DNA from: a virus
Length of the DNA stretch: 64,000 nucleotides
Strand: one strand, 5' to 3'
Virus record (IMG/VR): IMGVR_UViG_3300044922_000175
Location: 61,940-125,939 of that record
Part shown: positions 444-31,300 of the stretch, piece after piece
How positions within the stretch are numbered: position 1 is the stretch's first letter
Layout of the letters: every line of letters begins with the position of its first letter
Made by a program: the position numbers and the translations under genes
The notes under the pieces: generated by a model
Told to the model about the DNA's origin: nothing
Databases searched by the model: none
Seen by the model: only the letters and a program-made list of their open reading frames with translations

Positions 444-2771
444 TTAGTCTAAATACTCAATACCATAACCCTGATCAATCAATGCTTGAATCTCATCAGG
501 ATGTAATTCTAATTCAGAACCTTGAGTCATACCACCAAATTGTTTCTTCCAACCTGCGGCATTTCTAGCAAAGTTAGCTCTTTTAACTTGTGTTGCACTA
601 TAGTCCTCTTTATTTGCAAGTACCTTTCTAGCAAATTCTTGCACACCCATACCGGCTCTATTAGCTGACTCAGTAAATTTACCTTTGTTAGCAGGATTAA
701 TATAGATACCACCATTCTTCATCTGACCAGTTTGTCCTTGTTGAATAGCTTGCATAATTTTTTGAATAGCTTCTTGTTGCTCTAAAGGAGGTAACTGTTG
801 TAACATCATCATAAGTTGTTCAGGATCTGTTTGAGTCATCTGTGCATACATTTGAATAGCTTGCATCATTTCATCTTGTTGACCACCTTGTTGATATACA
901 TTACCACCACACTCGTAACAAGGTTGTCCACCTTTACCATACCATGCATTTCCACTAAATGTAGAACCACCCTTCATCATATTATACATAGCATCCATAT
1001 CCATTTGACCACCATACATATCAATATCACCACCATACATTCTTCTACCCATTTTACGGAGTTCTTTATTTGATGGAGTTTGATCAGTGCCTAGTCTTGG
1101 ATCATTAGAATTCATAAACTCCTGATAACCTCTTTGCTTACGAGCAGCTCTAATTTCAGAGGCAATAACACCAGCAGCAGTTCCAATACCTAAACCAATA
1201 CCAGTTATTGTATCATTACGTTTCTTTTTCTTAGCAGCAGCTTCTGCAGCGGCAGCTTTTTGTTCTTCTGTTAAAGCAGGACCACCTTCTTGAAATCTAC
1301 GGGCTTGTTGATCAAACGCAGACTTCTGTAAATTAGTACCTTGATTATATACTTTACCGGTATTAGGATCCACACCTTGACTAAATGTAGTTGAACTAGA
1401 AATACTTCCTGGTGCAGAACTAAATATCCTATCTCCTTTCTGATCTACAAGTGATTGAGGATTAGAGGACTGATAATAAGAATAAATATCATTACGTGAT
1501 GGTACTTCTTTTACACCAGCTTTATTAAATTGCTGAAGCTGTTGATTATAATACTGTTCAAATCTAGGATCAGCACCAACACCAGGAGACATAAATGTAT
1601 TAATAGGAGCAGAACCATAGGTTCCTCCTTCTGCCATATTAGATAATATCTTAGCTTGTACGTAAGAAGGTAATGCTTGGAATCCTGCATTACTCGGCTC
1701 ACCACCATTAGCCCAAGTACCAAAACGTTTATGCCAGTATAAAGGAGAGAAAGGATCTGTAGCTTTAGATGAGTTTTTACCACCCATTCTATTCCAGAAA
1801 TTATCTTTACGTTTCTTAGAACCATGTTGGCTAAAGTCTTTCATACCAACATAACCACCATGTACAATTTTATACTTATCACCTTTCTTAGCTAGTACCA
1901 TCCATTTCTTACCAGCTCTATCAGATTTTCTTTTAGCACCTACTTTAGTAAACCCTCTATTTTTATAACGCTGAGGAATACCACCCATCTTCATCTCTTC
2001 CATCTCACCCATGTTCATATCAATATCTTCTTCCTCTTCCGGTCCTTCTTCAGAACCTTCATTGAATTGCATATAGTCAGCAACAGATGTAAGATAATCA
2101 TCAGCTAAAGTTAACTTACTAGCTACCCAAGGCTCAACCTCTGATTCACCATTAATGAAGTTTTGCAATCTAGCAATCTTATCATTCATAGCCATTATTT
2201 GACCCATTGCCATTTCACCACCCTCATCATAATAATTATCACGCATCATCATACCTACACCACCCATTCCCATAGCTGGCATACCCATAAATTTCATAGC
2301 AAGATTAGCCATTTTCATTTTATCTTCACCATTTCCTTCACCATTATCCATTCCTTGACCTATAGCCATTGCAGTATTTTTTAAGAAATCACCAACAGGC
2401 TTTTGAATATTATTGCTATTATACTCATTTACTTTATCATAGTAACTACCAAGAGATTCATAGTTATTAGGATATTGAAACATGTCTTGTCCCATACTAC
2501 CACCAGTTTGAGCTTTTCTATATCCACCACCACGGCTCTTGTAAGTCTTAACAAGCCATGCAGAACCATAAGCTGAAGGCCAGGTATCAAATTTAGATTT
2601 AGCTTCTGATTTAACTCTAGAATATAACTCAGGATTAGTAGGAACATTACCACCCTTTTTCATTTCTACAGCTTGTGGATAGGCTTTAAAAAATGCTTCT
2701 TCTGTAGGGAACATCTTATAGAACTCCTTCTCAGATTTAACACCAGCCATTTTTAAAAATTTATCTTTCAT
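444..2771 (-). CDS. Putative virion cargo/core protein; modular, punctuated by xxxGG motifs
   Basis: 775-aa ORF downstream of the muzzle gene, where crAss-like phages place ejected cargo proteins. About 15 hydrophobic-x-x-GG motifs separate short basic or Met/Gln-rich modules. Confidence 0.6.
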   Translation of the reverse strand: MKDKFLKMAGVKSEKEFYKMFPTEEAFFKAYPQAVEMKKGGNVPTNPELYSRVKSEAKSKFDTWPSAYGSAWLVKTYKSRGGGYRKAQTGGSMGQDMFQYPNNYESLGSYYDKVNEYNSNNIQKPVGDFLKNTAMAIGQGMDNGEGNGEDKMKMANLAMKFMGMPAMGMGGVGMMMRDNYYDEGGEMAMGQIMAMNDKIARLQNFINGESEVEPWVASKLTLADDYLTSVADYMQFNEGSEEGPEEEEDIDMNMGEMEEMKMGGIPQRYKNRGFTKVGAKRKSDRAGKKWMVLAKKGDKYKIVHGGYVGMKDFSQHGSKKRKDNFWNRMGGKNSSKATDPFSPLYWHKRFGTWANGGEPSNAGFQALPSYVQAKILSNMAEGGTYGSAPINTFMSPGVGADPRFEQYYNQQLQQFNKAGVKEVPSRNDIYSYYQSSNPQSLVDQKGDRIFSSAPGSISSSTTFSQGVDPNTGKVYNQGTNLQKSAFDQQARRFQEGGPALTEEQKAAAAEAAAKKKKRNDTITGIGLGIGTAAGVIASEIRAARKQRGYQEFMNSNDPRLGTDQTPSNKELRKMGRRMYGGDIDMYGGQMDMDAMYNMMKGGSTFSGNAWYGKGGQPCYECGGNVYQQGGQQDEMMQAIQMYAQMTQTDPEQLMMMLQQLPPLEQQEAIQKIMQAIQQGQTGQMKNGGIYINPANKGKFTESANRAGMGVQEFARKVLANKEDYSATQVKRANFARNAAGWKKQFGGMTQGSELELHPDEIQALIDQGYGIEYLD

Positions 2772-2772
2772 T

Positions 2773-5700
2773 TTAGTTATTGTATTTGTTTAGCCAACTA
2801 GTTTGGCCGCCTTGTTTTTGTTCTTGTAACTGTGATGCTGCAACTGCTGCAGGTGGAACCGCCCATAGTCTATTAAATAGATAAGCTAATTTTTTAGGAT
2901 CTCTATCTATAATATTAAGAAATTTAGGATCTACAAATGTTTGATCAGCTGCTTCATCTATAATATTTATTATATTTTTAGCTTGACCTGGAGTAACATT
3001 TTTAGATTGTTCAGGTGTCATGTTTAAAGCTTTTCTCAATTGCATAATTCTTGCATGCACTTCAGTAGGATTAGCCAAATAACCAGATATAGCATTTTCT
3101 CTTCCCATAAGTTTATTAGCGTCTAAACCTTGATCATATAATTGTTTCCATTTATTTGAATTTAATCTTACTTCATCAGATAATGTTTTTCTTATATCTC
3201 CCATTTGTCCAGATTCTTTTAATAAAAAATCTGAAGTCCAATCATGTGTTCCTTCATGTGCAGTTATTGAAGATCTTTGATTTTGAGGAATATTAATATC
3301 TCTACTAACCCAACTACCATATCTTGGATTAGTATTTGCTTTTTCTAAAATTCTTCTTGTATCTGGAGAATAATTATATAAATAACTTATACCTTTATTA
3401 CCAGAATGAATATGTGAATTAGGATTCTTTAAAAATAAACTTTCACCAAGATCTTGTATTTGATTTGATATAGGGTATTGTTTTGTATTAGGTACAAAAG
3501 ATTTAGCTTGCTCATAACCTAAATCAAATTTATCTTTTAAGATATTACCTCTTTGTGGAATCCAGCCTAAGTCTGTATCTATTTTGGCCTGAGTTACTGG
3601 ATCATTAATCCAATTTTTTAACCAAGTATTTCCTTCAGCAATAGCAGCTTTATTGCCTCTGTTTCTTACTGCACCTAATAGTTCATTCGCAATATTTTTA
3701 ATATGACCTCCTACTGGTGGTGTAGCTGACATCTGACCTACATTAGAAACTTCTACAGGTTTGTATCCAAGCAACCAATCTTTTTGTAATAATCTTATAT
3801 TAGGGTCGTCTATAGGTAAATGTCCTAATTGTGAAGTTTTAACGCCAGGTGTAATATTTCCTAAGTAAACTTCATCAACCCACTCTGGATTTAAAGGAAC
3901 AGCTCCTGCATCTTTATTATTAAAAATAATCTGGTTAGGTTCTATATTTTTAACCTGTAAAACATCAATTCCTTTGGCTTCTATTAACGCATCTGGATTA
4001 TAATAAAGAGCAGTTTTAAACTCATTTGGTCTTGCAAAATAAGGAGAAGGAAATAAATCTTGATCTCTTGATTTAATCACACGTGACTCTAATGCGTCCT
4101 TTATTCCTTCTTTACCTACCCCTCTATAATATGCTTCAGGATTAGGTTTAAATGCCCAAGGATTATATTTGTATGTATTTTTTAAAGGAGTTTGAGTTGT
4201 AAGATATTTTCCTGCTGACTTCAGGAGTCCACGTAATTCTGCAGTAGCTGGTATAACATTAATAGCATTAAAACCAGCATCAAGAGCATTACCAGCAGCT
4301 TCACTAAAATTACCTTTAGCTAAGTTGTTTACACCCATTGCAGTATTACCTACTAAATCAATTCCAGAAAATGGAAGAAATGCCGGATTAACAATGTCTA
4401 ATACATAGTCTAATGGATCAGCAGAACCTTTACGTTGTTCTGCTTGAGATACAAATGAACTAGCTTCTCTTGCTTTCTCATAAGCAGATTTAGTTTCTCC
4501 TTGACTAATACTACCTACACGTTTAGCATACTCTGCAGCTTCAGCTGCTTTTCTATTAGCTGCACTAACGTTTGTATTTTGATTAACTACTCTTGTATTA
4601 TCTGAGTATCCGGCATTACCTGCAGGACTAGTTCTCATATAGGGCTTACCTACATTAGGTGTCCAACCAGCCCAACCACCTGTCTGGAATTGATCTAACC
4701 ATCCTCCATACTTCTTATTTTCTGGATAGTCATAACTATAACCTCTACCTTCAGTTACTTTAGCTTTACTAATATCTAAGTTATTTGCAGCTTTCCAATC
4801 CTGGAACTCTTTCTCAGTTCTAAATGATTTCCGGTTACCATCTTGTAATGTAACACCAATGTTATATTCTCTAGCCATTCCACCATTAGGGGTATACATA
4901 TCTCTATCTATATTAGATACAAATAAAGAAGGCTTAGGTGGTTCTACTACTGGAGTATTAACTACATCAGGAACAACTTCTGGTTTTTTATATACGTATG
5001 GTTGAACAGGTTTTTTAAATCTAAAAACAGAATTTAAATCTGGAGTAACACCAGTTAATCCTAAATCTAGAAAATCTTCTTTAGTTACACTAACAGGCCA
5101 CATTCTATTTTTTCTAGCAGCATTATTTTTAATCTGAGCAGCAGTTAGTCCAACATTATAAGGTAACCATTGACCATCAGGTCTCGTTGCTCTATGATGA
5201 TACGTTTGTTTTGGATTAGGTGTAAGATAATCAGATATTTTAGTTTCTAAATAATTATTTCCTGGTTTTTCATAAAGATGAGTAAATCCACCCACAACAC
5301 CCGAACGAGGTCTTAGATAATGATGCATCATTTCTTCTACAGGTTTTATTATTATATTCTCATTATAAGGAGAAGGACCTTTAGGTTTATTAGGACCCCA
5401 ATACTGATTAAATAAATCATTACCTTGTAAAGAAGCAGTTTGTATATTATTTAGTCTAGTCCAGTTTTTATATTTATCAAAGGATGGTTGATATTTATTA
5501 TATAAATTTAAACTATCCTGATAAAGTTGTACTTTTCTTGGATTAGATGTATAGATAGGAGGTAATGTTCCACCAGTTTGATATTCATCTAACCAACCTG
5601 TCTCACCACCCTCTTCTCTACGCTTATGATTATAGTCTATACGCTTACCAGATGTTTTCTCTCTTTTAAATCTAGCTTTCTCTGCTGATGATAATTCTGA

Positions 5701-6057
5701 TGATGTCTTAGGGGTTGTTTCATTTACCCGTTTGCTTGGTCTGCATGCAGGATAAGGTCTAGAGTTTTTATCTTTACCTGATCTACCACATGTCTTACCT
5801 GTCTTAACATCCACCCATTTTTCATCAAACCACTGTCTTAAACCACCTTTACCCATCTGAGGTATCTCAGTTACATAGTCACCGGGGAATGTATAATCCT
5901 GACCGGGCATCATCATTTGCTGATTACCTAAATCATCTATACCTAATACAGGATAGTTAACCCCCTTCATTGTTATATTAGAAGAGGGTATAATTGTAAC
6001 TTCACCGGGATATGCCCACTGACCTAAAGGAGATATGATAGGTTTTTTTCTAGCCAT
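2773..6057 (-). CDS. Putative cargo protein, multi-module, with C-terminal zincin-like (HExxH) domain
   Basis: 1094 aa. Contains AHEGTH plus downstream YLANPTEVHARIMQLR, and three GG..WL(D/N)x(Y/F) linkers. It is the first gene after the muzzle gene. Confidence 0.6.
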   Translation of the reverse strand: MARKKPIISPLGQWAYPGEVTIIPSSNITMKGVNYPVLGIDDLGNQQMMMPGQDYTFPGDYVTEIPQMGKGGLRQWFDEKWVDVKTGKTCGRSGKDKNSRPYPACRPSKRVNETTPKTSSELSSAEKARFKREKTSGKRIDYNHKRREEGGETGWLDEYQTGGTLPPIYTSNPRKVQLYQDSLNLYNKYQPSFDKYKNWTRLNNIQTASLQGNDLFNQYWGPNKPKGPSPYNENIIIKPVEEMMHHYLRPRSGVVGGFTHLYEKPGNNYLETKISDYLTPNPKQTYHHRATRPDGQWLPYNVGLTAAQIKNNAARKNRMWPVSVTKEDFLDLGLTGVTPDLNSVFRFKKPVQPYVYKKPEVVPDVVNTPVVEPPKPSLFVSNIDRDMYTPNGGMAREYNIGVTLQDGNRKSFRTEKEFQDWKAANNLDISKAKVTEGRGYSYDYPENKKYGGWLDQFQTGGWAGWTPNVGKPYMRTSPAGNAGYSDNTRVVNQNTNVSAANRKAAEAAEYAKRVGSISQGETKSAYEKAREASSFVSQAEQRKGSADPLDYVLDIVNPAFLPFSGIDLVGNTAMGVNNLAKGNFSEAAGNALDAGFNAINVIPATAELRGLLKSAGKYLTTQTPLKNTYKYNPWAFKPNPEAYYRGVGKEGIKDALESRVIKSRDQDLFPSPYFARPNEFKTALYYNPDALIEAKGIDVLQVKNIEPNQIIFNNKDAGAVPLNPEWVDEVYLGNITPGVKTSQLGHLPIDDPNIRLLQKDWLLGYKPVEVSNVGQMSATPPVGGHIKNIANELLGAVRNRGNKAAIAEGNTWLKNWINDPVTQAKIDTDLGWIPQRGNILKDKFDLGYEQAKSFVPNTKQYPISNQIQDLGESLFLKNPNSHIHSGNKGISYLYNYSPDTRRILEKANTNPRYGSWVSRDINIPQNQRSSITAHEGTHDWTSDFLLKESGQMGDIRKTLSDEVRLNSNKWKQLYDQGLDANKLMGRENAISGYLANPTEVHARIMQLRKALNMTPEQSKNVTPGQAKNIINIIDEAADQTFVDPKFLNIIDRDPKKLAYLFNRLWAVPPAAVAASQLQEQKQGGQTSWLNKYNN

Positions 6058-6061
6058 TTTA

Positions 6062-9000
6062 TTACCTAAATGAAGCTAACAATTTGTTATTACTGAGCTT
6101 CAATAAGAACTTAGATGAGCCAGAAACAAGTTTCTTTAATATAACCTTGTTAATGTAATGTCTAAACTTCTTTCTTTGTGTAGCTCCCTTATTATAATTT
6201 ACATAACTTGTATTAATATTCCTAATATAACCGTTGGCTTCAGTGGTCCACATGGGTACAAAAGTCCCAGTAAATTCACCACGATCATTAGTAATATCCC
6301 AGAACTGATTGAATCTATACTTCTGTTCTTCTTTAGAGAATAGAATATCAATATCACTAGTATTTACTAAAGGATAGTTATTAATTAAGTAAGGATTATT
6401 CTTAGGAGATAGGTTTAATATTAGGTCCCCAGAAATTTGTTCTGTGTTATATACAATAGCCCGATCAAAGTTCTCATCTAATAGATGATGATAATCTAAA
6501 CAGTTAGGAGAATACTTATAACACTCTAAAATATATTCTACTGAACGGGTTGTTGTAACGGTTTGACCTTGGTTCTGTACATACTCAATCTCAAATGGAT
6601 AGTCAACACCATAGTAATTACAATAAGAATTACATACTAAGTTATGTTTCCAAATGGTATTACCTTTAACAGTCATGTAGTATGTCTTACTAGCCATTAC
6701 TAAATCCGGATGCCAGTCATGAAAAGATATAAAAGCTTTAGCTTTAGGATCATAACTAACAGTCCATGATACATTATCAAAATATGTAGGATCACCTAAA
6801 TTAATTATTAATCCTGCATACTCTGTAGATATGAGTTTGTTCTGTGCTCCGGCTTTAAATTTATTTTTAAACTCAGGTTTTAATTTATAGTCTTTCTTAC
6901 AGAAATAAAGAATCTCATTTATGTTATCATAGGTAGTTTGTAGTCCAACTCCAATAATTGTATTATCTAAAACTATAGGATCTAGATCAGGAAAATCTTC
7001 AAGAACAGCATAAGGACTGTATTGTGAAAACCACCACTTCATACCAGACTTAGAAATGTCTTGTATTCCTTGACCAAAAGAAAATACCTTTCCTTGGTTT
7101 TGGCTTGCATAAAACAATCCAGCTGGAGTATTGATTACAGATAATCTATTCTGACAACTACCATATTCAAACTCAGGATCTACGTTTATTACGTTTTGTA
7201 AAGGTTGGCCGTTAAATAACTGACCATCACCAATAGTTAATTTAGTTCCACCATTAAGATCTAAAGTTTCTGCACCTTGGAATATAATAGGAGAGCTATC
7301 ATTAAACATAATAACTGCACCAGTTTTACCAAAGTTTCTCATAGTTACAACCTTAGAATTAAAGTCGTAATAGTTATTTGCTAAGAACTGTCTCCAGTTA
7401 TCTTTTCTTAATTCATACTGTTGCTGTAAAGAATAAAGAACTCTTGTATCATAAGAGGTAAAGCAACTTATATTATTAGGATCATATATTCTTGGTTGAA
7501 GATTACCCCATGAAACAAAGTTTGATACATGCTTACTAATACTTAAAGAGTAATCATACTTATAGTAGTTTGTATCTTTAATATAAGCAGCATTAAACAA
7601 CTGTTCATAATCACTATATGTTTTAAAATCGTAATGTCTTTTACCAGGATTATCATCATGATCTCTGTATGCTAAGTTAATTTCTGACTCTACATAGAAA
7701 TCTCTAATACCAGAATTAAACAAATACATATAAGCAAATCTAACCATCAAGAATCCTGAAGTCATTCTTCTATCAAAGTGATGATAATCATTAGGTAAAA
7801 TGCTATCACTGGTTGGCTCAAAAATAATATCTAATAAATCGCCAACGTTATACTTTCCAGTGTTCATCCAATATCTTGGATAAGGAAGCATGTTGTATAA
7901 TCTATAATCCCACTCTGTGCTATCTGGTAAATTCTGCATCCACTGAGTAAAATAGAAGAATGTAGATTTTTCAGTGTAACGGTTTACATACATGTCTCCA
8001 CCAAATACTAAACCAGAGGTAGCTTTAAGAGCTTTATTAATAGTCCAAAGATTTATACAGCCCACAGGTATTTGTCTAATACCATCTAATTGACCATATA
8101 AATTATCATTCTTAATTTTTAAAGCAGCGTAGTGAGCAGAAGTAACAGATGTTTGAGTATATGCTTCTGGTTCTTTCCAGATATCTTTAGCATTAAAAGG
8201 TTTACCTTTATCATCTACACCATAAACACTTAAATCAGGCCTACCATTTTGTGAGCGTGCAATATGACCAATAGTAAATAAAGTATTGTCTTTAGTTATT
8301 GGATCATTAATTGTTCTTTCAGTAGTTAAGACAACAGTATTTGCTCTATATAAATTATTAATCTTATAGATAGTATCATAGTCTTGAACAACAGGATCAA
8401 GATATAAAGAGTTCTTAATACCTCTTCTTCTACTACCAACTGCAGCTTTTATAAGATTATTATAAAAACCATGTGATACATATTGATAAGCAAACTGTCT
8501 TTTTTTACCAATGGATTCTATGATATCAACTATATTTCTTGTTGATTCTAACCAATAATAAGATACTAAAAATGCTTGACCTATTGCATAAGCAGCTGCG
8601 CCAGCAAATGCTCCAACTACTGCGCCTGATGCACCTGCTACTGGTGTTCCTATAATGCCACCTAAAGCAATTGTCATAAGAGCAGCCTTAGTTTGATCTG
8701 CAAAATTTCCATTAGCCGCATTGGCTGCAGTTACACCAACAGCAACACCAGCTAGTGAGGAAAGTATTACAGCAGTGTCTGTTATAAATTTATCTTTAGG
8801 ATGATTCTCAACCGGAATAAATCTACCAATTACATTACCGTATACCTCACCATAAACTTTTAATTCTGTGGCAGATAAAAAAGGATTTCTAAATGTTGTC
8901 TCAGGTGAGTGAAAAGAAAAGATATCCCGCTTAACACCATCAAATAATGTAACATCAACATTACTTAATCCAGTGCTATCATATTTATCTTTATCTCTAA

Positions 9001-10801
9001 ACGCTCCACCCTTAGTTTGTACACTTCTATTACCAGGTCTATCTAAAGTAGCTTTATCTCTACCTAAGAATGGATCATGATCTAAGAAGTTATAAGGATA
9101 GTTTACATATAAACCAGTTGTAATCTTATTGCCTGCAACCTTGTCGGGTATATCATACTCCCGCATGTTATTAATAAGACCCTTGGCAATAATAGTACGG
9201 TTACCTTCTCTAGTACCCCTTAAAATCTCATAACCTATAATAGTATTTATATATTGATTATTTTGATCTACCGGGAATTCTATATTAGAGAACTCAACAC
9301 CTAAAATAATAATACTATTAGTAGTAGGATTATAGTTAGGTATTACAATGTCATCAGGCATCTTATGATGTCTAATGTTTTCAGCACAAAGATCTCCCCA
9401 AATATCCGGTTTGTTATCAGGATACTTCTCAGTAGATTCCCAATAAGCTAGCTCACCAGAATACTTAATGAGGCCACCATCATCTGTTGTTCCAGAAGCC
9501 GGTATTACTGTAGCTGTATTATTTACTTGCCATTCTTGCTCTTGACCAAAATCTATAATGTGATCAGGGCTAGCATTATTATTAAGTTCTCCGGGCTTTG
9601 GAGCACGTCCTGGAATATGATAACTAGATGATTTATCACCGGTGTTATAAATCCATCGTATAAAGAAACTATATACTTCATCTCTTAAAAATGTTGGTTT
9701 GTTTCCGCCTTTATAATAATAGTCAGCGGGATATTCTACACCCACCCACTTTGCTGTAATATTATTAGCTAGGGGTTGGTAATTAAAGTCTTCATAAGTA
9801 GTAGGACCGACTCTAATTAAATAATCATTTACATTGTACATACCAGCTGATTTCTCATATGCCGGTGTACGTAAAGGTATTTGTTCTAAAGGAATTGTTA
9901 CTAATGTTGGATCAACAGCATCTAAAGATATAGTGGTTGTTTGAGTAGAATAATAACCAATCTTTCTAGCTACAGCTTGTTGATTAACAAAGCCTATTAA
10001 AACTAATTCAAACTCATCATAGTCTGCATCTATATCACTAATGATAATATCTAATGACCCATTAACGTTATCATGACTCCATAATGCTTGAACATTAGAG
10101 ATAGCTAAGTAATCAGTAACTTTAATACCATTTACAGAATATGCAATAGTTGCTTGATAAGAACCATTTAATAATGTTCCTAAGCCATGACCCTTTTGAA
10201 TTTTTATACAAGGGGTTTTAGCATAAGCTGCTAATCTTAGTTTATCACAATCTAATACCCCTGTAGATACTTCATCCTTACATGGTCCTGGATCCAGGTC
10301 ATTCATAAGATATGGAACACCCTCCCAGTTTAAAGGACTATAAGGCCAAGCTTCTTCCTTACCAATATTCATTGTTCTTGATGGGTTATTACCATCATCC
10401 CAATAAAGATTCCAAGTACAGTCAGAGGTATATTTAGATACTCCAATGATTGGATAAACCTTATTAAACTTAAAACATTGGTTTAAAGCATCATTGTGAA
10501 TTGTATTATATGTGCAACCATTCTCATCAAACAAACCAATCTCTGAAGAAAAGTCATTTGTTGAGTAAATAGCCCACTTACCATTACTTATATAAATAGT
10601 ACCTATAATAGTGTAGGGTACTTCTACACAAGCTATATTACTAGGTTCATTACCCAATACTCCAACATCTCCAGAAGGAGAATTGTTTACAGCATTTCTA
10701 GCATGTGTCCAATATCCCTCACCAATATAAGCATCACTTACATCTTTTAGTAAGCCTTTATTATACAGCTCGGTGTGAATTAAACCGGTCTTACCATCCA
10801 T
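6062..10801 (-). CDS. Tail stabilisation / muzzle protein (P22 gp10-like, crAss-type)
   Basis: 1579 aa with beta-rich character and a C-terminal WTVSY...FISFHDWHP motif. It sits after two ring-like genes and an HU-like gene, matching crAss-like tail synteny. Confidence 0.75.
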   Translation of the reverse strand: MDGKTGLIHTELYNKGLLKDVSDAYIGEGYWTHARNAVNNSPSGDVGVLGNEPSNIACVEVPYTIIGTIYISNGKWAIYSTNDFSSEIGLFDENGCTYNTIHNDALNQCFKFNKVYPIIGVSKYTSDCTWNLYWDDGNNPSRTMNIGKEEAWPYSPLNWEGVPYLMNDLDPGPCKDEVSTGVLDCDKLRLAAYAKTPCIKIQKGHGLGTLLNGSYQATIAYSVNGIKVTDYLAISNVQALWSHDNVNGSLDIIISDIDADYDEFELVLIGFVNQQAVARKIGYYSTQTTTISLDAVDPTLVTIPLEQIPLRTPAYEKSAGMYNVNDYLIRVGPTTYEDFNYQPLANNITAKWVGVEYPADYYYKGGNKPTFLRDEVYSFFIRWIYNTGDKSSSYHIPGRAPKPGELNNNASPDHIIDFGQEQEWQVNNTATVIPASGTTDDGGLIKYSGELAYWESTEKYPDNKPDIWGDLCAENIRHHKMPDDIVIPNYNPTTNSIIILGVEFSNIEFPVDQNNQYINTIIGYEILRGTREGNRTIIAKGLINNMREYDIPDKVAGNKITTGLYVNYPYNFLDHDPFLGRDKATLDRPGNRSVQTKGGAFRDKDKYDSTGLSNVDVTLFDGVKRDIFSFHSPETTFRNPFLSATELKVYGEVYGNVIGRFIPVENHPKDKFITDTAVILSSLAGVAVGVTAANAANGNFADQTKAALMTIALGGIIGTPVAGASGAVVGAFAGAAAYAIGQAFLVSYYWLESTRNIVDIIESIGKKRQFAYQYVSHGFYNNLIKAAVGSRRRGIKNSLYLDPVVQDYDTIYKINNLYRANTVVLTTERTINDPITKDNTLFTIGHIARSQNGRPDLSVYGVDDKGKPFNAKDIWKEPEAYTQTSVTSAHYAALKIKNDNLYGQLDGIRQIPVGCINLWTINKALKATSGLVFGGDMYVNRYTEKSTFFYFTQWMQNLPDSTEWDYRLYNMLPYPRYWMNTGKYNVGDLLDIIFEPTSDSILPNDYHHFDRRMTSGFLMVRFAYMYLFNSGIRDFYVESEINLAYRDHDDNPGKRHYDFKTYSDYEQLFNAAYIKDTNYYKYDYSLSISKHVSNFVSWGNLQPRIYDPNNISCFTSYDTRVLYSLQQQYELRKDNWRQFLANNYYDFNSKVVTMRNFGKTGAVIMFNDSSPIIFQGAETLDLNGGTKLTIGDGQLFNGQPLQNVINVDPEFEYGSCQNRLSVINTPAGLFYASQNQGKVFSFGQGIQDISKSGMKWWFSQYSPYAVLEDFPDLDPIVLDNTIIGVGLQTTYDNINEILYFCKKDYKLKPEFKNKFKAGAQNKLISTEYAGLIINLGDPTYFDNVSWTVSYDPKAKAFISFHDWHPDLVMASKTYYMTVKGNTIWKHNLVCNSYCNYYGVDYPFEIEYVQNQGQTVTTTRSVEYILECYKYSPNCLDYHHLLDENFDRAIVYNTEQISGDLILNLSPKNNPYLINNYPLVNTSDIDILFSKEEQKYRFNQFWDITNDRGEFTGTFVPMWTTEANGYIRNINTSYVNYNKGATQRKKFRHYINKVILKKLVSGSSKFLLKLSNNKLLASFR

Positions 10802-11655
10802 TATCTAGAACTATTATAGTTGTAACTTTTAAATTGATCATAGTACTTGCCGTACATGGCACGTCTATTCATATCATGCAATTTAGATAACTCTTTAAAG
10901 TTAGGAGTATTTACAATAGACAATGCATTGTTACGAGCTCCTCTGAATCTTTGTTCAATAAGGTTTAACTTCTGCATTACATCCTCTCCATTCATGTAAA
11001 GGTTCTCAAGTATTCTTTGCTTTAAACCATATTCATAGTACTCATTAATCATTGGATGATCCAAGATTAACAAGTTACCATCTTCATCTTCTAAAGCTCC
11101 TTGATAGTTAACGTATAGTTTTCCGGTCTCTAAGTTCATGTATATGAAACCATCTTTAAGTTTACCAACGTATGGTGACTTATAAGAGGTATTAGGACAA
11201 TCACAAGAAATACTTTTAGAGTTACCAGTTAATGTAATTGGTGTATTTATATCGTATATTCGTGTCTCATACTGTAATTTTTGTACAAGACGCATATGAT
11301 CACCACAATCAGTAATACAAGTATCCCCACATGGAGTAGTAACAGTTGCCGGATCAATTATAACTTCCTCAACGTGAGTACCACTCATGGCCGGTTGTTC
11401 AACTTTGTATTGACCACAAAGTAAAGCATAGTTCATTACATAGAAATCATCTGGTAGTTTTACCAGATTATTCTCAATGTCTAGAACCTCTTCTTTAGTT
11501 TTAAATATTCTTAAACCTAAATCATAATTTATTCTCTGAACAACTTTAATAAGTTGTTGAGGCTCAATCATACCCTCTAAAGAATACATTGAGAAATCAA
11601 CGCTTACATCTTCAAGTAATTCATCAAAGGTTTTATATTTTAATTCTGTAAGCAT
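10801..11655 (-). CDS. Tail ring / tubular protein
   Basis: 284 aa immediately upstream of the muzzle gene. LPDDFY and HPMINEYYEY segments resemble tail tubular/adaptor proteins. Call is mainly by synteny. Confidence 0.6.
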   Translation of the reverse strand: MLTELKYKTFDELLEDVSVDFSMYSLEGMIEPQQLIKVVQRINYDLGLRIFKTKEEVLDIENNLVKLPDDFYVMNYALLCGQYKVEQPAMSGTHVEEVIIDPATVTTPCGDTCITDCGDHMRLVQKLQYETRIYDINTPITLTGNSKSISCDCPNTSYKSPYVGKLKDGFIYMNLETGKLYVNYQGALEDEDGNLLILDHPMINEYYEYGLKQRILENLYMNGEDVMQKLNLIEQRFRGARNNALSIVNTPNFKELSKLHDMNRRAMYGKYYDQFKSYNYNSSR

Positions 11656-21367: not shown

Positions 21368-24300
21368 TTATTTATTTTCTAAGGCTTCTAAACGAGCAAG
21401 TAAACTATCTATAGTAGCCTGTTGTTCCTTCATTGCTTCTACCAACAGAGGGATAACTTTGTTGTAAGCCAAGTTTTTGTATCCATCTTCTTGAGTAGTA
21501 ACTGCTTCTGGAAGTACTGCCTCAACATCTTGAGCAATAAGACCTACGTCATGTGTGCCTACTTGCTCACCTGAGTTCCAATCAAATTCTACACCACGTA
21601 GAGACTTAATCTTGTCTACAGGAGTGCTAATAGGAGTGATGTTGTCCTTAAGTCTAGAATCTGAAGGTTGAACAATTGGGTAGTCAAAGTTAACAGTGTT
21701 TGCACCTCTAGGTACATACCACATTCTAGAGTCTGTACCATTCTCTGCTATACGTCTGAACTCAATGTCTTGTCCACCTGCATCTCCAGTTAAGCGTATT
21801 TTAAGTGCTTTCCAACTGGTATCTGCTTGACCTCTTATCAAGAAGTAAGTCAAAGGATCTTGGTTGTAACCTACGTTACCATGAACCTCTAGACCTGTTC
21901 CGTTACCACCTACAATAGTACACAAGTTACCTTCCTGTTCTACTAATGTTTTCCAAGTACTCCAGTTACCATTCCATCCAGTTCTATAAGTACCTTTTCT
22001 AAAAATAGTACCAATGTTACCTGAGTTTTCTGGGAAGTACATTTGCAATAATGGACCACCAGTTTCTCCGTAAGATAAAGCTACACCATAGTCATAGGTA
22101 AGGTTAGGTCTGTTAGCTCCACTGTGTCCTAATGCGTTAGATACAATTAACTTACCACTTACATAGTAACTGTTCCAGTCTTGTCCATAGATGTCACCAA
22201 ACTTAGTAAGTTGTTGTGCTGTAGTAGCACTTCCTGCAGTACTAGCACTACCTGCGGTTGAAGCATAACTAACTGATTGGCTACCTATGTTTCCATTATG
22301 TACAAGTGTTCTCCAAGGTCCTACATCTCCAGGACTAATACTTCTAACAAAGAAGTCTGATTTATTCCAGAAAGCAGTTGCTAATTGAAACTCATACTGG
22401 TTACTTGTTGCACTGTTGTAGTGAGAATTTACAATCAAATGATACCAATCACTTGTTGGCATATTTGACATACCACTTCCGTCATAGAATCCAGAAGATA
22501 GTCCTCCAGCAGAGTTACCCCCAGTATGGTTAGTTGTTCTATAACCAAGTGCGTTTACTCCATTACCTTTAACAAAGTATATTGAATCAGTTCCGTCAAA
22601 TAGTTCTGAGTCCGCAGCTTTTCCTCCTGTAGTTAACCAGCCACCATAGTTACCCAAATCATTACTAAATTGAGATAAAGCTGTTGGTCTTCCAGTTACC
22701 CCTGTCCATGCTACGTTAGTAGCTGTAGCAGCGTTACCTGATATAGATCCAGAAGAAGTAATCCAACCACCATAGTTTCCTAGATCATTAGTGAACTGTG
22801 ATAAGTTTGTAGGTCTGCTAGATACGTTAGTCCAAGCAACACTTCCTGCACTGCCTGTAACATTTATACCCCATGTACCACTTGCTCCACTGCCTGTCAA
22901 TCCAGGAGCATAACTAGTGTAGTTACTACTATCTAGTACTGTTCTCCAAGCTTGCCAAGATCCTGCATTTTTACCACGAATAGCAATCTGACCTGTTCTA
23001 AAGTCACCATAAATTTGGTGAATCCAAGCAGAACTATACGCAGAAGAATAAAGACCTCCATCAGTTTGACCAAACAAACTTACACTTGTATTATAACCTA
23101 TTTGGTTTTGTGTAACACTGTCAGGATTAATTCCATTGCTAGAAGAAGTTAAGGTTAAGCCTCCAACAGTGTTTGCACTACCTGAAGTTGCCGCATATGA
23201 TACTGATTGTGAACCAATGTTTCCTGTATTAATTGCAGATGCAATCGGTTGAGCCCAAGAAGAATAGTTAGAAGAGTCAAGAATAGTTGCATCAGTGCCT
23301 CCATTTGCACCCTTGCCAATATACAACGTACCATTATCCCATCTGATTTGCCAACCATAAGAATTATTATGAAATCCAACAACTCTAGAATCTGTTGCAA
23401 TCATCATAGTCACGTTTCCATTAGTACCAGAATTAAACTCAATACCTTGCCAGCCATTACGAGAACCTGTCATCTGCCAAGAACCATAACTTGCATCGTT
23501 AGGTCTTAAGTGGGCACCATTTGTTGGAGAGTACAATCCATAGATACCATTAAGTTGAATCCAACTTTCAGGAATAAAATAACCACTTGCATTTCTAGTA
23601 GGAATAGTATTAGCACTAGCTCCTACAGATACACTATAACCACCTACAGTTGAAGAGTTACCCCCATTAGCTGGAGCAGATCCTGCTGTAGTGGCATAGC
23701 TTACCGATTGGCTTCCTATATTAGCAGTAGTAATTGCATCTGTAATTCCATAACCACTAATTGTAGTTGGCTTAGATGAAACATTTGCAAATGAAATACC
23801 AGTTATGTATCCACTATTATTAGTAAACTGGGAAATGTTCATACTACTTAAAGAACCAGAAGTACTTGCGTAAGATACACTTTGAGACCCAATAGTAGCT
23901 GCTGTGATTACAATACTATTATTTACTAAAAGATCTTTATTAAAATAGAAATTAGGTCTATCTGTATAAATATGAGCATGATTACTATTTGCAGGACCAA
24001 AGCTAATATTTCCTGAATCCGTTGTAAGACGCATTCCCCAATCTCCTGCCCCACTTAATGTTCCGTTATTGGTAGAAGTTCCAAAACGGATAGCATTCAT
24101 TACAGAAGTAGAAGCAAAATCTCCATAGTACCCAGTATCATTAGAGTCATAAAAAATAGGTGCTCTTAATGAACTTCCAGCCTGTAAGCTATTGTTAACA
24201 TATACATTACCTGCCCCAAGTGGGTCACTTCCATTATTAACAGACATGACTTGTGTAACCATGTCATAGTCAGTATAAAATTTTATACCTTGATAGCCAG

Positions 24301-27300
24301 AATTTGCTCCTAATTTAATTCCTGTATGAAATGCAATCCTTAAATCAGGATAAGGATGATCCCATGATCCACTTTCTCTATATATTCCATATGCACTAGA
24401 TAGATTATTATCAAAGTACATTCCATAAGAATGATCAGTACTTACACTATAATGATTTCTTAAATGATAAGAACTAAGTTTATCAGCGCTGAAATCTTGA
24501 CCAGCTGCACCAGCTTTGTATGCATATCTACCATCTGATTCACTTTCTGTGTAGTATCTGTCATCGTGATTATGTGAAGGTAAAGAAGTAAGGTATCCAG
24601 CGGATGCATGGTTACCCCACCCAAATGCGGTATTCCACTGACTAGAGTTACCGTATCCAGTAGAATATATAAGTCCACTAAAGGTTGCATTACCGTCTGG
24701 AGTCAATGCTAAGGAGTCTATTCTAGTAGCAAAATTCTTTACAAAGAAATTTAAAGAACCTGAAGACCATCCTCCGCAGTTTCCAACGCTTTCTTTTTTA
24801 GCTACAATACCTGCTAAATTTACTGAGTTACTTCCTACAACACATTCATTGGAAGCAAATACCATACTTGCAGTAGTTTGATCTCCTCCGTTATTGTTGA
24901 ATATTACTAAAGATGGAATAGAACCATTTACTCCTGTAGAAGCGTTATCTCTTCTAAGAATAAGACGGGCAGTCCATTGATTAGGATTCTGATAAGTTGC
25001 TCCATCCCACTGAAAGTTACTTTGTCCATTAGATGTGGTACCTCCAATAGATTGGTATCCTACAATACTTAAATTAGTAAGGTTAGAGTTACTATTAGGG
25101 TCAAGATAGTAGTTGGTATCATTTGAATCATAAAAGATAGGAGCACGGAATGAACCAGCAACAGTATTGTTACCACTCATATCCAATACCCAACGATCTG
25201 CAGAAGCAGACCATCCACCAATACGCATTATGTTATCAGAATCTAAACCAAAGTTTACAGCATAGTTTCCTGCTCTATGGAATGACATAAACGCAGCATT
25301 ACCACCTGTAGCATATGCTTGAAGACTAGGACTGTCTAGTCCTCCCAAGTAAGATCCTCTATTACTTCTAAAGTAGAAATAGTTTCCTTCCGTTAATGTA
25401 GTTCCAGACAGAGGTACATAAGAACTTAAGGCAGAAGAAGTAATATAGCCTGGACCATTAGAAAGTTGATTTAAATTAGTTAAATTACCCGAATCCCAAA
25501 CTTGTCTCCAAGCCTGAGAATTATTTATAGCAGTTGCACTAAAACTCCTATAATACATACTTCCATTAGAACTGAATCCTAATTGACTATTATATTCTCC
25601 AGGATGTCTGTTAATATTTAAAAACGCATTGGAGTTATCAGTAGCAGGCATTCCCAGTACTTCAGATCCTGCACTTAATTGCCCTGTGAATATTAACCTA
25701 CTTGTTCCTGGATGTGTATCTGCAGCACCCCCATCACCTAAAAAAGTATTGGTTTCTGTATAACCTGTAATATATCCATTAGGATTACTAGAGTTGTAAG
25801 GAGTATACCCTAAAGCACCTGTTACTTGTCCTGATGTTATTCCTGTTAAGTATCCCGCACTAGCATGATTACCCCAGTTGTAAGCGGCTAGCCAGTTTGC
25901 AGATGTTCCATAATCAGTAGTAGTAATAAGTCCTACAGTCCAAATACCATAACCAATAGCTGTTTGGGTACTACCATTAGCCATAAATAAAGCCTGATGC
26001 CCTAGTCCAGATTTAGATTGTCCACCTACGTTTGTGTGTGTCCATGCTATACCATAAAGAGATCCAGAAGATGTACCATCAGCAGATAACTTGTATGCAT
26101 CACCCATTGCAAACACACCTTGATATCTATCAGAAGCATAAAGACCTACAAGACCGTGCCCATAGTTTTGATTTGTATAAACATTACCGTCAACTGCTAT
26201 ACCTGCAGAAATAGTACTTAACCTCCAGTTTCCTGCATAAAATAAGTCAGTTCCAATATTTCCTGGATTTAATCTAATACCCCAGTTTCCTGTAGAATTA
26301 AGAAGACCAAATCCACTACCATCAAAGTATGCACTATATCCTCTTGTGCTAGAATTTCCATCCCTAACAAGAATTCCTCCTACAGAAGTAGAGTCTGGTT
26401 GAAAATATAAGTAGTTACTGTTATAAGTAACAAAACGAGTACCTCCATTAAAATGAAGTTGACTAACATAGTTAACCTCACGATTCTGCATGTTAAAATT
26501 CCTAGACCAGTTTACATAACTAGTATCATTAGTTAGATAACTAAACAAAGCAGTATCTGTACCTGCATTTCTAGTATACCAAGTAAATGTGTAACTTGAG
26601 TCCCAATACCAATGAGAACCATAATCAGAACCTGCTGATCCACCCTCACCAAAGTAAAAGTGTGCATCACCTGAATCAGTTGCTCCTACTCTAAGGATGT
26701 CATTAATATGTACTTCATCTCCGTTACCATCCCCTAAGTAAGTATTTCCGTAAACACTTAACTGATTGATATTCAATGTACCTAGTCTAGAGGTACCATC
26801 CATATTTAGGTAGTAGTTATTATTATCACGGTCGACCAGAGTGTATGTATACAATGTATTATTGAAGTACATATCACCACTTACAATAAAGTAATTACTA
26901 CTATTCCACATAATTCTTCCCCCACTATCTTGACCAGTAGAAGTTACAAAATCAATGTAAGATCCGTTTCCTCCAAATAATTGTAATTGAGCATAGTTAT
27001 CAGCTAGGTTAAAGCCCATACCCTTATTAGTCAAAGAGTATCTAGAACCTGCTACACTTCTGTCTCCTACATAGAATGGGAAGTTTGCATCTACTGTATC
27101 ACTATTGATAGCAATTTTACTATCTGAAATTGTAATAGAGTTAGATCCGTATTTACCAATATTAACTCTATTGTCAGCAAAAGCCTCAATTACAGGAAGA
27201 CCTGCAATTGTATTTACTGAAAAAAGAGAATCACTTAAGTCATCTGTTACTGTAAATAAACGTCCATTTACTCCGTCTACTGCTAATACATCTAAACCAC

Positions 27301-28339: not shown

Positions 28340-31300
28340 TTATCTTTTTGTTTAATTCTTGAACTTGATTTGTTAATTCTTTTACTGCACCGATAAGAGC
28401 AGCAGTTAAGCGTGAGTAGTGAACCCCTATAGGTTCTCCGTTCTCATCGTATTGTACAAACTCTGGGTATACTTCTGCCACTTCTTCTGCAATAAGTCCT
28501 AACTCCATAGTCTGAGACCCAATCTTATTATAAGTGACTGGTCTCAAATTTACTACCTTTTCCAAATTTCCCTCGCTAGTTTCTACATTTTCTTTTAGTT
28601 TAATAGAAGAGTTTTCTGTGATAGTTCCGTTAACTATTAAACTATTGTATATAGTGTGTACTCCAGCACCGTCTATTCTCCAAGCAAATCCAGATCCTCC
28701 TCCGTCACTCTTGTAAACATAAAACTCTCCATCTCTACCTACTACTTCCCATTTATTATTTGCAGCAGCGTCTTGGAATTGAATAATATTTCCAGAGCCC
28801 CTAATATACATTACTCTACTAGAACCATCATTTGTAAGAATTGCGTGAGTAGCGTTTACCTGTCCAATATTAATGACATTGTTGCCATTCATATTGATAC
28901 TACCACTCATTGTACCTCCAGCAAGAGGAAGCTTAGCAGCAATACTATTAGTTACTGTGGTAGCAAAGTTTGAATCATCTCCTAATGCAGCAGCCAATTC
29001 GTCTAGTGTATCTAATACTCCTGGTGCTCCTGCAATTAAGTTGTTGATTTGAGTAGTTACATAAGATGTAGTAGCATACCCAGAAGAAGCGTGATTACCC
29101 CATCCAAAGGCTGTGTTCCAATTAGTGCTATTGCCACCAGTTGCTGTAATTACTCCAGTAGATTCAAGTGCCGCATCAAATCTAAACTGACTTCCGTTAT
29201 AGCGAAGATTATTACTAGTATACCCACCTCTATGAAAGTTGATTACAATATTTCCAGCATCACTATTCTCAAGACTAAATGTGTGATCGCTATTAGGCCA
29301 AGAACCATCAATAGTTCCAATATTTCTAAATACTTTTAATCCCGCAAGTGCTGAATTATATATATCATTTCTTACAAATACTGACGCTTGTAGACCATCG
29401 AGCAGATCAGCATCTAATCCACTTCCACTTCCATCATTACCTGCGTGCCATACTGTACTTCCGCTTACTTGAAAACCTCCATCTGCTCTCATTAATCCTG
29501 GAGTGTATACACCAGAACCATAATCTCCACTTTGGTTAAGTCTTAGCCAAGAATCGGTTGAATCAATTGTATTTTTTCCTCTTAGATTTACTCCATTAGC
29601 AGTCAATGCCATATGCTCGTATGAGCCATAACCTTCATTATTAAATATAAAAGTCTGAGCATTAAACTTATGGGTAGACCCACTTGCGTATGTTCTAGTA
29701 GTCCAGGCTCCTATATTTCCTGTGGTGTGTCCAAAATATATAAAGTTACTTCCTACAATACCTAAAGCACCATTAACATCTAATTTAACTTGAGGAGTGC
29801 TAGTTCCAATACCCACATTCCCTGATATAATAGCTCCACCACTAGGAGGAGTTGCTCCTCCATATCCTACAGTAAGTCCTCCATCAGTTCCTAATAGTCC
29901 TGTTTGAGTCCAGATAGATTTATAGTTTACAGTTCTAATCCAAGAAGAATCTTGCATGTAGAATCCACCACCATAACTAGGGAAATAAAGTGCTGAAGTT
30001 CCACTAATATGTAAGTTCTGACTTGTACTTAGACCACTTGCACCAATAGAAACCTGAACATTATTAGAACTATCTCTAAAGTACATATTTCTCCAAAGAG
30101 AGTTATCTTGTGCTTTATTGATAATTCCTAATTCATATTGGCCAGGTCTACCCATTACATATTCCCACTGAGAAAACCAAGTAGCAACTGAAGAGCCTGA
30201 GTTAATAGTAATCTCTATTTCAACCATATAGTTGCCACCAGGAACGTTACCTCTCCAAACGGCATAAGAAGCATTATTAGCTACGTTAGTCCATCCTGAT
30301 ATATTTTCCCAGGTTCCATTTTGCCGTCTTACTCTTCCTGAAACAGATGCAGGAATTTGTACGTAATAGAAAGAAAGATATACGTAACCTTCTGTATAGG
30401 TAATTCCAGAAGAACCATTTCCCTTTGTATTTAATACAATAGAATAAGTACGAGAAGTATTTACTGGAATAATATCTACCCACTGGTCATAGTTAAGATT
30501 AAAAGGACTGTTAGTATTCCAAGCTACTCCATCCTTAAATACCTCAAATCTATCTGCTGCACTGTAAAGAACGTTATCAACTAAGTTAGACTTAATACCA
30601 TACTGACCAAATACAGGACTAGTCCAAGAATAAGAACCTGGACCAAAATATCCACTATTGTTAGTGAATTGTGATATGTTCATGGAAGTCAATGCACCAG
30701 CAGTAGCTGCATAACCAGCACTGTTTGCGTAATTTACTGATCCCGAACTTGTTACGTAGCCAGCTGAAGCATGGTTGCCCCAAGAGTAAGCGGTGTTCCA
30801 ATTTGAAGAATTGTACCCAGATGCACTAAATGTTCCTGTAACAGATAAATTACCAGAAGCATCTAATTGCATTACTTGGTCAGAACTAGTCTGAGAAGTG
30901 GTCTTGTACCATCTATGATGACCACCTGTATAGTAAGAAACAGTATCTGAATGTATACCAAAACCACCAATCCAACTACCACCATTATCATGCATAACAA
31001 TTTTGTTAGGTCCACGATTGGTATCACTGTGTAAGTTATCAAACTTCAACTGAGAAAAATCTCCAAAAGGTTGACTAGAAGAAGTACTAGCAGCACTTCC
31101 AATTGTTATATCTCCAGATGGAACTAAAACATTTGTAGAGGCAGCAAGACTTACAAGATTAGTTGCATAACCAGCAATTGTGTCTACAAATAAAACCCCA
31201 GATTGTATGTATGTATTTCCTACTACGTGTAATTTAGCTCCAGGACTAGTAGTGCCAATACCTATGTTTGTTCCATTATCATATATAATAGAATCATCTA

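Follow-up and report, generated by a model that had tools for sequence, protein, structure and literature searches.

Gly-Gly seams mark the module boundaries of a cargo-position protein in a crAss-like phage

Among the phages of the human gut, Crassvirales are the most abundant; they are also common in marine and other environments, and the function of the cargo that they inject is largely unknown. Virion polyproteins that are processed at Gly-Gly-X sites are known from African swine fever virus (ASFV), where pS273R acts on pp220 and pp62, and from adenovirus, where adenain acts on the precursors with the consensus (M/I/L)XGG-X. In crAss001, the C1 protein (gp45; PDB 7QOG; Pfam: PF25725) probably leaves the particle before the DNA does (Bayfield et al. 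2023, PMC10172136). The polyvalent proteins (Iyer et al. 2017, PMC5512222) carry many unrelated domains on one polypeptide that is delivered with the DNA, and embedded metallopeptidases have been proposed to process them. Here, we describe P0001, a 775-residue protein encoded in a 64,000-nucleotide stretch of viral DNA, positions 61,940 to 125,939 of the IMG/VR record IMGVR_UViG_3300044922_000175. This stretch is called the window below, and nucleotide coordinates refer to it unless stated otherwise. P0001 is very probably a modular cargo protein jointed by a short motif, here called the seam, in which a hydrophobic residue is followed by two other residues and Gly-Gly. Judged from the sequence, it is most likely carried in the particle and injected. 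The seams are specific to cargo genes and under very strong selection, and module insertions, deletions, duplications and rearrangements take place at them. This pattern is not an artefact; it recurs widely and seems not to have been reported before, as no description of a seam was found in the literature on DUF5872/DUF5754 or on Gly-Gly motifs in crAss phages.

The gene and its modules are listed here from the N-terminus to the C-terminus. The representatives are 149 distant homologues that were compared with P0001 using BLAST high-scoring segment pairs (HSPs).

444..2771, minus strand: P0001, 775 residues, modular cargo-position protein; stop codon at 444-446, from the open reading frame (ORF) list and its translation
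2664..2771, minus strand: N-terminal module (residues 1-36), then the first seam (37-41); 13 representatives have an HSP beginning at residue 1, the next block begins at 42, and the module is nearly invariant in A1
2499..2648, minus strand: module A (residues 42-91), basic, N-terminal half of DUF5872; PF19197 positions 1-44, E 4e-8
1995..2216, minus strand: module B (residues 186-259), acidic and helical, isoelectric point 4.1; its own BLAST block in 72 of 149 representatives, predicted helices 186-206 and 214-235
1701..1979, minus strand: module C (residues 265-357), basic, DUF5754, ending in WxxGG; PF19058, E 2.8e-6
1623..1700, minus strand: 26-residue mini-module (residues 358-383) with a seam at its end; deleted as a unit (359-384) in 13 homologues
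1281..1622, minus strand: module H (residues 384-497); local matches 370-497 in representatives, insertions and deletions (indels) from 381/386 to 576/578
1029..1280, minus strand: module I (residues 498-581), with a hydrophobic Gly-zipper-like helix at 522-540; deleted motif to motif (495-578) in 10 homologues
882..1043, minus strand: tandem array of six seams in 54 residues (577-630); motif starts at 577, 584, 598, 611, 619 and 626, pieces between seams of 7-14 residues
708..881, minus strand: module K (residues 631-688), Met/Gln-rich, acidic and helical; its own BLAST block, at differing positions among representatives, predicted helices 632-683
531..707, minus strand: module D (residues 689-747), basic, common to P0001 and crAss001 C1 (gp45); BLASTP to gp45 355-437, E 4e-4, hhalign E 1.8e-4 and probability 48%
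447..530, minus strand: conserved C-terminal tail (residues 748-775), past the last seam; the HSP ends at 772-775 in 35 representatives

The original prediction, made from the sequence alone, named 15 motifs that divide P0001, and all of them are found in the translation of 444-2771 (minus strand). Their last Gly is at residues 41, 91, 171, 185, 264, 357, 383, 497, 581, 588, 602, 615, 630, 688 and 747. There are four extra Gly-Gly (GG) pairs, three within conserved modules (82-83, 305-306 and 330-331) and one in the tandem array (622-623). P0001 contains 20 GG pairs, while 5000 composition-preserving shuffles contain 10.9 +/- 3.0 and reach 20 in 25 cases. For the strict motif, [MFYW]xxGG, the difference is larger, 12 observed versus 1.9 +/- 1.3, and none of the 5000 shuffles reaches 12. 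A residue of the M/F/Y/W type is located three residues ahead of the first Gly at 12 of 19 GG sites, versus a background of 17% (p 8e-6). The expected enrichment over the rest of the proteome is also clear when the strict motif is counted, with 15.5 per 1000 residues in P0001 and 0.55 per 1000 in the other 125 ORFs of the genome (28-fold; Fisher p 9e-13). A signal at the DNA level was considered and dropped; GGT is the usual Gly codon (76/93).

Homologues of P0001 number more than 1400 in one database, and a second one yields 4223 representative clusters at E<=0.001; their alignments reveal where the modules begin and end. Against the 149 representatives, the HSP starts cluster at residues 42, 263 and 684 and the ends at 90, 357/358, 381/383 and 747, each of which is a seam. 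The "compact, unrelated modules" of the original prediction are real separate homology blocks with their edges at the motifs. In 47 closer homologues, 35 of the 52 boundaries of indels of at least 10 residues fall at most 5 residues from a GG end, versus 27% expected (p 1.5e-9), so that gains and losses do concentrate at the motifs, as had been proposed. The common indels are in register, running from motif to motif (38-86, 359-384, 495-578 and 600-612), with insertions after 358 and 576/578. When 12 module queries are mapped onto the 149 representatives, 52 different module orders are found, 26 proteins are non-collinear with P0001, and duplications occur. It is clear from these maps that the linkers allow swapping, another point of the original prediction, as it is exactly at the motifs that modules appear, disappear, double or change their order.

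Module C is the most widespread, being present in 136 of 149 representatives, and almost all of its residues are invariant in A1. Module A is found in 74 of 149 representatives and is deleted as a unit (38-86) in 6 homologues. The site after residue 358, at the mini-module, is an insertion hot spot in 19 homologues, and the mini-module is duplicated in P0188; module H exists in two copies in P0007 and in none in P0025. One unit of the tandem array, 600-612, is absent from 39 homologues. The helix of module I is the most hydrophobic 19-mer of P0001 (Kyte-Doolittle 1.48), and a comparable transmembrane helix is predicted at 136-158 of crAss001 gp45 (PMC10172136). In the C1-like protein of the gut phage cr128_1 (locus L091, local 2311-4875), a Gly-zipper region at residues 102-155 scores 25.0 bits against PF10439, narrowly below the 27.1-bit cut-off. 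This near-match hints at a membrane-active peptide as the nature of the module.

Selection acts on the seam itself. The terminal Trp of module C is followed by x-x-G-G in 156 of 156 distinct instances, with both x positions varying freely, and GG immediately precedes module C in 127 of 139. That GG is kept in 156/156 highly diverged sequences while the neighbouring residues vary points to selection at the protein level. In a motif census of 79 related IMG/VR loci, 81 seam-rich ORFs have 11.6 motifs per 1000 residues, compared with 1.2 in the remaining 634. The 589 distinct sites give the consensus P-x-[M/Y>F/W]-[Q/K/A/E]-x-G-G-[E/Q/I]-[P/Y/I]-P, in which Pro is enriched about three-fold at the second residue ahead of the hydrophobic position and at the second to third residue past GG. 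Structurally, little can be read from the AlphaFold2 (AF2) model of the whole of P0001, whose mean predicted local distance difference test (pLDDT) of 41 is too poor for a fold search. In this low-confidence model, 8 of 19 GG pairs are placed 0-3 residues past the end of a predicted helix, and the pLDDT stays below 50 around every seam. The C-terminal tail, searched with a loose pattern, is found in 37 of 70 seam-rich ORFs versus 4 of 487 others, and P0001 is the only protein of its own genome that has it. Homology of this tail to the start of the CARG1 family was considered and rejected, as it rests on a low-confidence stretch of one hhalign alignment and as phage cr112_1 has the tail and CARG1 on different ORFs.

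The window covers the right half (61940-125939) of one crAss-like phage contig, 125.9 kb long, with a CheckV completeness of 100%. On the minus strand, the gene order starts with TerL, the portal and the major capsid protein (MCP), followed by tail fibres with S74 chaperone domains, then the ring protein (PF24228), the muzzle (PF25731), P0002 (1094 residues) and P0001. Two of the tail-fibre genes (window 21368-32882) are giants of 2323 and 1516 residues with C-terminal Peptidase_S74 intramolecular chaperone domains. Past the window edge, P0001 is followed by proteins of 1194, 853, 4566 and 1762 residues. P0001 is thus the second gene after the muzzle, in a block that sits ahead of the RNA polymerase (RNAP)-associated giants, which is the position of C1, and the cargo position assigned in the original prediction holds. 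A type IX secretion system sorting domain on another protein of the phage indicates a Bacteroidota host. The neighbouring features are:

6062..10801, minus strand: muzzle protein gene; PF25731 crAss_MUZ, E 1.6e-30, with the ring protein PF24228 in the gene upstream
2773..6057, minus strand: P0002, 1094 residues, directly after the muzzle gene; polyvalent cargo protein with larger modules that are also GG-bounded
5605..5841, minus strand: module G of P0002 (residues 73-151), C-terminal half of DUF5872; PF19197 positions 52-113, E 2.2e-12
2860..3690, minus strand: zincin-like domain of P0002 (residues 790-1066); HExxH at residues 934-938, window 3244-3258

The 4566-residue giant (genome 42458-56158, minus strand, outside the window) has HExxH at residue 1984 and DFDID, a DFDxD motif, at 3463. 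It is therefore a fused zincin-RNAP cargo protein as in other crAss-like phages (bioRxiv 10.1101/2020.03.07.982082). Only 2 strict motifs are found in it. The 1194-residue protein, encoded by the next ORF after P0001, has seven xxxGG sites beyond its N-terminus; the KAQMG that had been listed there is present at residue 12 but is not a GG motif. Pfam and PHROGs give zero matches for the 4566-, 1194- and 853-residue proteins. Megablast of the P0001 and P0002 genes against 50,697 phage records gives no match; with phmmer, neither P0001 nor P0002 nor the zincin region matches any PDB sequence. With tblastn, P0001 matches 19 phage records, 18 of which are crAss-like (matching module D) and one a cyanophage (matching module A). 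In the T4-like Synechococcus phage S-BM3 (locus L088, local 1021-2034), the product of a gene beside that for the small terminase is a string of modules G and A with Lys-rich xxxGG spacers. Beads with GG spacers are therefore found outside the crAss-like phages too, but this protein does not show the hydrophobic consensus of the seam.

P0002 follows the same GG rule with larger modules, its block boundaries being at 71, 151-177, 449-461, 783-792 and 1068-1094. All six motifs that had been pointed out in it are present (residues 68, 147, 159, 448, 457 and 1080), but the strict motif is weakly enriched (3 versus 0.75, p ~0.04). The N-terminal modules of P0002 are fused to P0001 modules, in the order F-G-A-B-C, in 10 or more representatives. 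DUF5872 is a composite Pfam family, as its N-terminal half is module A in P0001 and its C-terminal half is module G in P0002. In many relatives G precedes A, the reverse of the order in DUF5872, and the separate mobility of the two implies that DUF5872 joins two independent modules, which here are in two different genes. Homologues of P0002 carry LysM, YkuD, glucosaminidase, VanY, SET, GNAT, lysozyme and CARG1 domains. Trp-Leu is found directly after GG at residues 155, 453 and 1088 (the extreme C-terminus) of P0002, at residue 429 of crAss001 gp45 and in the tails of related proteins; this GG-Trp-Leu element may be a docking strand.

The zincin-like domain of P0002 starts right after the GG at 783-784. 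The two His and the Glu of its HExxH, together with a downstream Glu, are invariant in 29 homologues, and the AF2 model of the domain has a pLDDT of 80-96. It has no Pfam match, and tblastn against the phage records gives none. Foldseek against PDB returns nothing at E<=0.001 and otherwise helical-bundle noise; the long structural matches in PDB are only to Zn metallopeptidases (M13 PepO, ECE-1 and Zmp1; M34 PPEP-2/3) and are weak (Z 5.0-6.2). In BFVD it comes closest to a structural protein from Cellulophaga phage phi14:2 (E 1.5e-3), and structural proteins of phi4:1 and several gut crAss proteins are matched as well. A six-frame hidden Markov model (HMM) search of the complete genome reveals no C48 (PF02902), C5 (PF00770), C39 (PF03412) or MPTase-PolyVal (PF18818) domain, at E<=1 for PF02902, PF00770 and PF18818. 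The search for a C48, C5 or zincin protease thus has a divided outcome, no C48 or C5 but HExxH domains in P0002 and in the 4566-residue giant. The HMM of the P0002 zincin is present in about 7-9 of the 79 related loci and absent within 10 kb in about 70. A single-sequence search likewise does not find it in five related genomes, three with a completeness of at least 94%, all of which have retained P0001 homologues. From this patchy distribution, the zincin appears to be one more swappable cargo module and not an obligate partner of the seams. A role as the dedicated seam protease is not supported by co-occurrence, which fails in the five genomes and in most of the 79 loci.

The link to crAss001 C1 is found in the seams as well as in one module. 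gp45 has 21 xxxGG sites and module D in common with P0001, and the tblastn matches of module D include the genes in the C1 position of cr128_1 and cr108_1, with the homology limited to about 60 residues. The Pfam family CARG1 (PF25725) spans 424-555 of gp45, which is exactly one inter-seam interval. Two pieces of gp45 have been resolved by cryo-EM, 214-245 in the tail barrel and 425-552 at the portal (PMC10172136), and each fills one inter-seam interval. The second piece begins at residue 425, within the seam at the end of module D, and its reported range includes the GG of this seam along with two others, so the seam is apparently uncut in virions. The published crAss001 peptides (79-101, 181-190, 275-300 and 307-320) span no GG; the identity of the gp45 gel band is not given in the text of Shkoporov 2018, and the text of Bayfield 2023 contains no peptide lists. 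CARG1 is found neither in P0001, P0002 and the next two proteins (E<=10) nor in the six frames of the genome (E<=1), while the positive controls gp45, cr112_1 ORF3, cr128_1 and cr108_1 score 196-223 bits. In cr112_1 (MT774388.1), which belongs to the genus of crAss001, C1 is encoded by two ORFs of 326 and 516 residues (locus L085, local 8275-11324), and the break is at the seam between module D and CARG1. The first ORF ends with module D, a seam and a P0001-type tail, and the second begins 21 residues ahead of the seam that opens CARG1. A 191-residue ORF, an endonuclease according to RefSeq NC_055881.1, separates them. The half in the tail barrel therefore need not be on one polypeptide with the half at the portal.

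We suggest that the seam is an uncut joint, acting as a helix stop, a hinge and a handle for loading and threading, a view that we hold tentatively and put slightly short of an even chance. P0001 would be ejected cargo comparable to C1 (gp45), and its crAss-like phage would infect a Bacteroidota host. Its chain consists of about a dozen small, independently evolving modules, basic ones (DUF5872-N, DUF5754 and D), acidic helical ones and a hydrophobic Gly-zipper helix, and then the conserved tail. Each joint carries a seam of the form [M/Y/F/W]-[Q/K/A/E]-x-Gly-Gly, usually just past a helix end and often bracketed by Pro. As a helix stop and a hinge, the seam would insulate neighbouring modules so that each folds and unfolds alone. 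The chain would be loaded and then threaded through the portal, the tail barrel and the muzzle, with the seams uncut in the virion, and the seam would probably also be a short handle that is recognised by some part of the virion. A single address tag, the C-terminal tail here and the portal-binding CARG1 in crAss001, could then take many modules along as passengers, into the particle and on into the host.

Several observations, however, weigh against this model. Module D exists alone in three Suoliviridae phages, cr50_1, cr10_1 and cr118_1, as an ORF of 72-83 residues annotated as 'transcriptional regulator', which also answers whether an inter-GG segment can occur as an ORF of its own. The loci are, in local numbering:

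4661-6180 of locus L087: cr50_1, stand-alone module D
1649-3180 of locus L089: cr10_1, stand-alone module D
2929-3180 of locus L090: cr118_1, stand-alone module D

Each of these proteins consists of a variable leader of 12-23 residues, a seam and the module, and no module lies upstream of the seam. A second seam follows the module in cr50_1, while cr10_1 and cr118_1 have no downstream seam. In cr50_1 and cr10_1 the gene order is portal, a 'peptidase' with HExxH, module D, an acidic scaffold-like protein and MCP; in cr118_1 module D is directly after the portal gene and the next ORF has no HExxH. In HK97-type phages the prohead protease occupies that portal-adjacent slot. The portal-adjacent HExxH 'peptidase' could be a candidate maturation protease of crassviruses. 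It shares HExxH and a YLxNPTE helix with the P0002 domain, with weak support (hmmsearch 11 bits, hhalign probability 4%), and a peptidase of the cr50_1 type was not detected in crAss001 or in four other seam-bearing phages. Further, Pro at the residue after GG is halved (0.027 versus 0.055), and GG in all instances together with a fixed hydrophobic residue three before it exceeds what a plain hinge needs, which argues for recognition by a partner, possibly a protease. The split of C1 in cr112_1 implies that chain continuity across that seam is not essential. The intact seam is known for one seam of one phage, from the residue range stated in the paper and not from coordinates (PMC10172136). 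The conservation of GG and the stand-alone module D with its leader and seam are not explained by a mere hinge.

In the original prediction, P0001 is a polyprotein that a phage protease cuts at Gly-Gly. In a broader form of this reading, a phage or host protease would cut after or just before the seam, in the procapsid or post-injection, and free many small proteins or peptides. The modularity, the swapping at the joints and the cargo position of the original proposal stand, while the genome has no C48, C5 or C39 peptidase; we consider cleavage somewhat unlikely. It agrees well with the strict GG, the hydrophobic residue upstream and the depletion of Pro at the next residue, as it does with modules that are unrelated and partly occur alone, with the natural split of C1 at a seam in cr112_1, and with the leader and motif of the stand-alone module D beside a gene whose HExxH...YLxNPTE resembles the P0002 domain, although that resemblance is weak. 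The cargo block also contains two zincin-like domains, in P0002 with invariant catalytic residues and in the giant, the former with fold relatives among virion proteins of phi14:2 and gut crAss phages. In addition to the processing proposed for polyvalent proteins (PMC5512222), fused crAss cargo polyproteins with a zincin domain nearby have been called 'likely cleaved' (bioRxiv 10.1101/2020.03.07.982082). A related and rather improbable version is that the seams are recognition sites of a virion-borne processing enzyme, for instance a divergent zincin that is portal-adjacent or cargo-fused depending on the phage. We tilt away from wholesale cutting because the tandem seams, 7-14 residues apart at 577-630, would yield useless peptides, because conserved GG pairs also occur within module C, because the crAss001 seam is apparently intact in the virion density (PMC10172136), and because no protease is co-inherited. 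The four peptidase families have no match in the complete genome, the P0002 zincin is missing from the five related genomes and from most of the 79 loci, and the cr50_1 peptidase from crAss001 and four other phages with seams. Moreover, the zincin-RNAP giant, the one protein that the literature expects to be cut, is nearly free of motifs.

It can also be speculated that the seams form a sticker or docking code, in which uncut aromatic/Met-x-x-Gly-Gly linear motifs bind the portal wing, the ring proteins or each other and thereby gather the cargo before it is loaded into the procapsid or tail barrel. The motif is restricted to cargo genes, where tandem arrays of it are frequent, and the enrichment of Pro on both sides is typical of exposed linear motifs. 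The portal-bound C1 density starts within a seam that is followed by Trp-Leu, the element that occurs three times in P0002 and in related tails, and 12 C1 copies interdigitate with SH3-like wing loops of the portal (PMC10172136). However, only one of about eight crAss001 seams is ordered, and docking by itself leaves the exact placement of the seams at module boundaries unexplained; this reading is quite unlikely in our view. Finally, the motif could be a by-product without function at the protein level, either recombination microhomology or a side effect of Gly/Met-rich linkers. The in-register, motif-to-motif indels would fit, as would the dominance of GGT among the Gly codons, which gives GGTGGT at 16 of 19 GG sites. 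Against it, the shuffles never reach the observed count of strict motifs, the bias is position-specific, the GG kept in 156/156 diverged instances indicates selection on the protein, and six bases of homology are too few for directing recombination; it is very improbable. Returning to the uncut joint, it is the model we prefer, with recognition of the seam by a virion part as a probable component.

The seam provides a simple rule for parsing otherwise unannotatable cargo proteins into units, and it explains how the cargo repertoire diversifies. DUF5754 becomes one bead of the seam system, and DUF5872 two separately mobile modules. New here are the boundary statistics, the conserved tails, the non-co-inheritance of the P0002 zincin, the near-absence of motifs in the RNAP giant, the module D with leader and seam beside a portal-adjacent HExxH gene, and the natural split of C1 in cr112_1. 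Were the seams cut sites, tailed phages would have their first GG-type polyprotein system; as uncut elements, the seams represent a new type of joint, suited to passing a chain of many domains through the tail of a phage. Should a processing enzyme recognise them, one chain with one address tag would deliver a dozen or more small proteins or peptides to the host, and the seam would be a universal 'cut here / swap here' code for effector exchange between phages. As crAss001 is cultured and its C1 has the same design, it can serve as a model for asking whether seams are cut, bound or hinges.

Compared with known systems, P0001 resembles the ASFV and adenovirus precursors in being a probably virion-internal protein with Gly-Gly at the unit boundaries and a hydrophobic residue upstream. 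However, the phage has no clan CE protease, the hydrophobic residue stands one place further ahead of GG than the adenain consensus has it, and the virus is an unrelated, bacterial one. The leader of 12-23 residues ending in GG in the stand-alone module D resembles the double-glycine leaders of class II bacteriocins, which are cut by C39 peptidases, as does the sub-threshold match of the cr128_1 Gly-zipper region to Bacteriocin_IIc (PF10439). The phage has no C39 domain, though, and the spacing of the hydrophobic residues differs from the bacteriocin leader consensus.

With polyvalent proteins (PMC5512222), P0001 and P0002 share the many unrelated domains on one, presumably delivered, polypeptide and the rampant shuffling, with at least 10 modules and 52 architectures among the 149 representatives. 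A zincin-like putative peptidase, the proposed processor, is found in the same or a neighbouring protein in both, and the P0002 homologues have cell-wall and modifying enzymes. In contrast, there is no PF18818 in the six frames (E<=1), no LPD family turned up in general Pfam scans, and the P0001 modules are much smaller (7-114 residues) and mostly non-enzymatic. The text of PMC5512222 contains neither 'linker' nor 'glycine', so a conserved junction motif is not described there. P0001 differs from C1 in being the second gene after the muzzle and not the first, in having a short conserved tail in place of CARG1, and in its modules DUF5872-N, DUF5754, B, H and K, none of which is in gp45; in the gp45 seam the aromatic residue is often one place before GG, in P0001 three. 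Both are encoded after the muzzle, are Gly-rich with many xxxGG, and have a Gly-zipper helix, module D and structured pieces between the seams. With the position, the design and one module of C1 but CARG1 missing, P0001 is best seen as a C1-like protein and not as a member of the CARG1 family.

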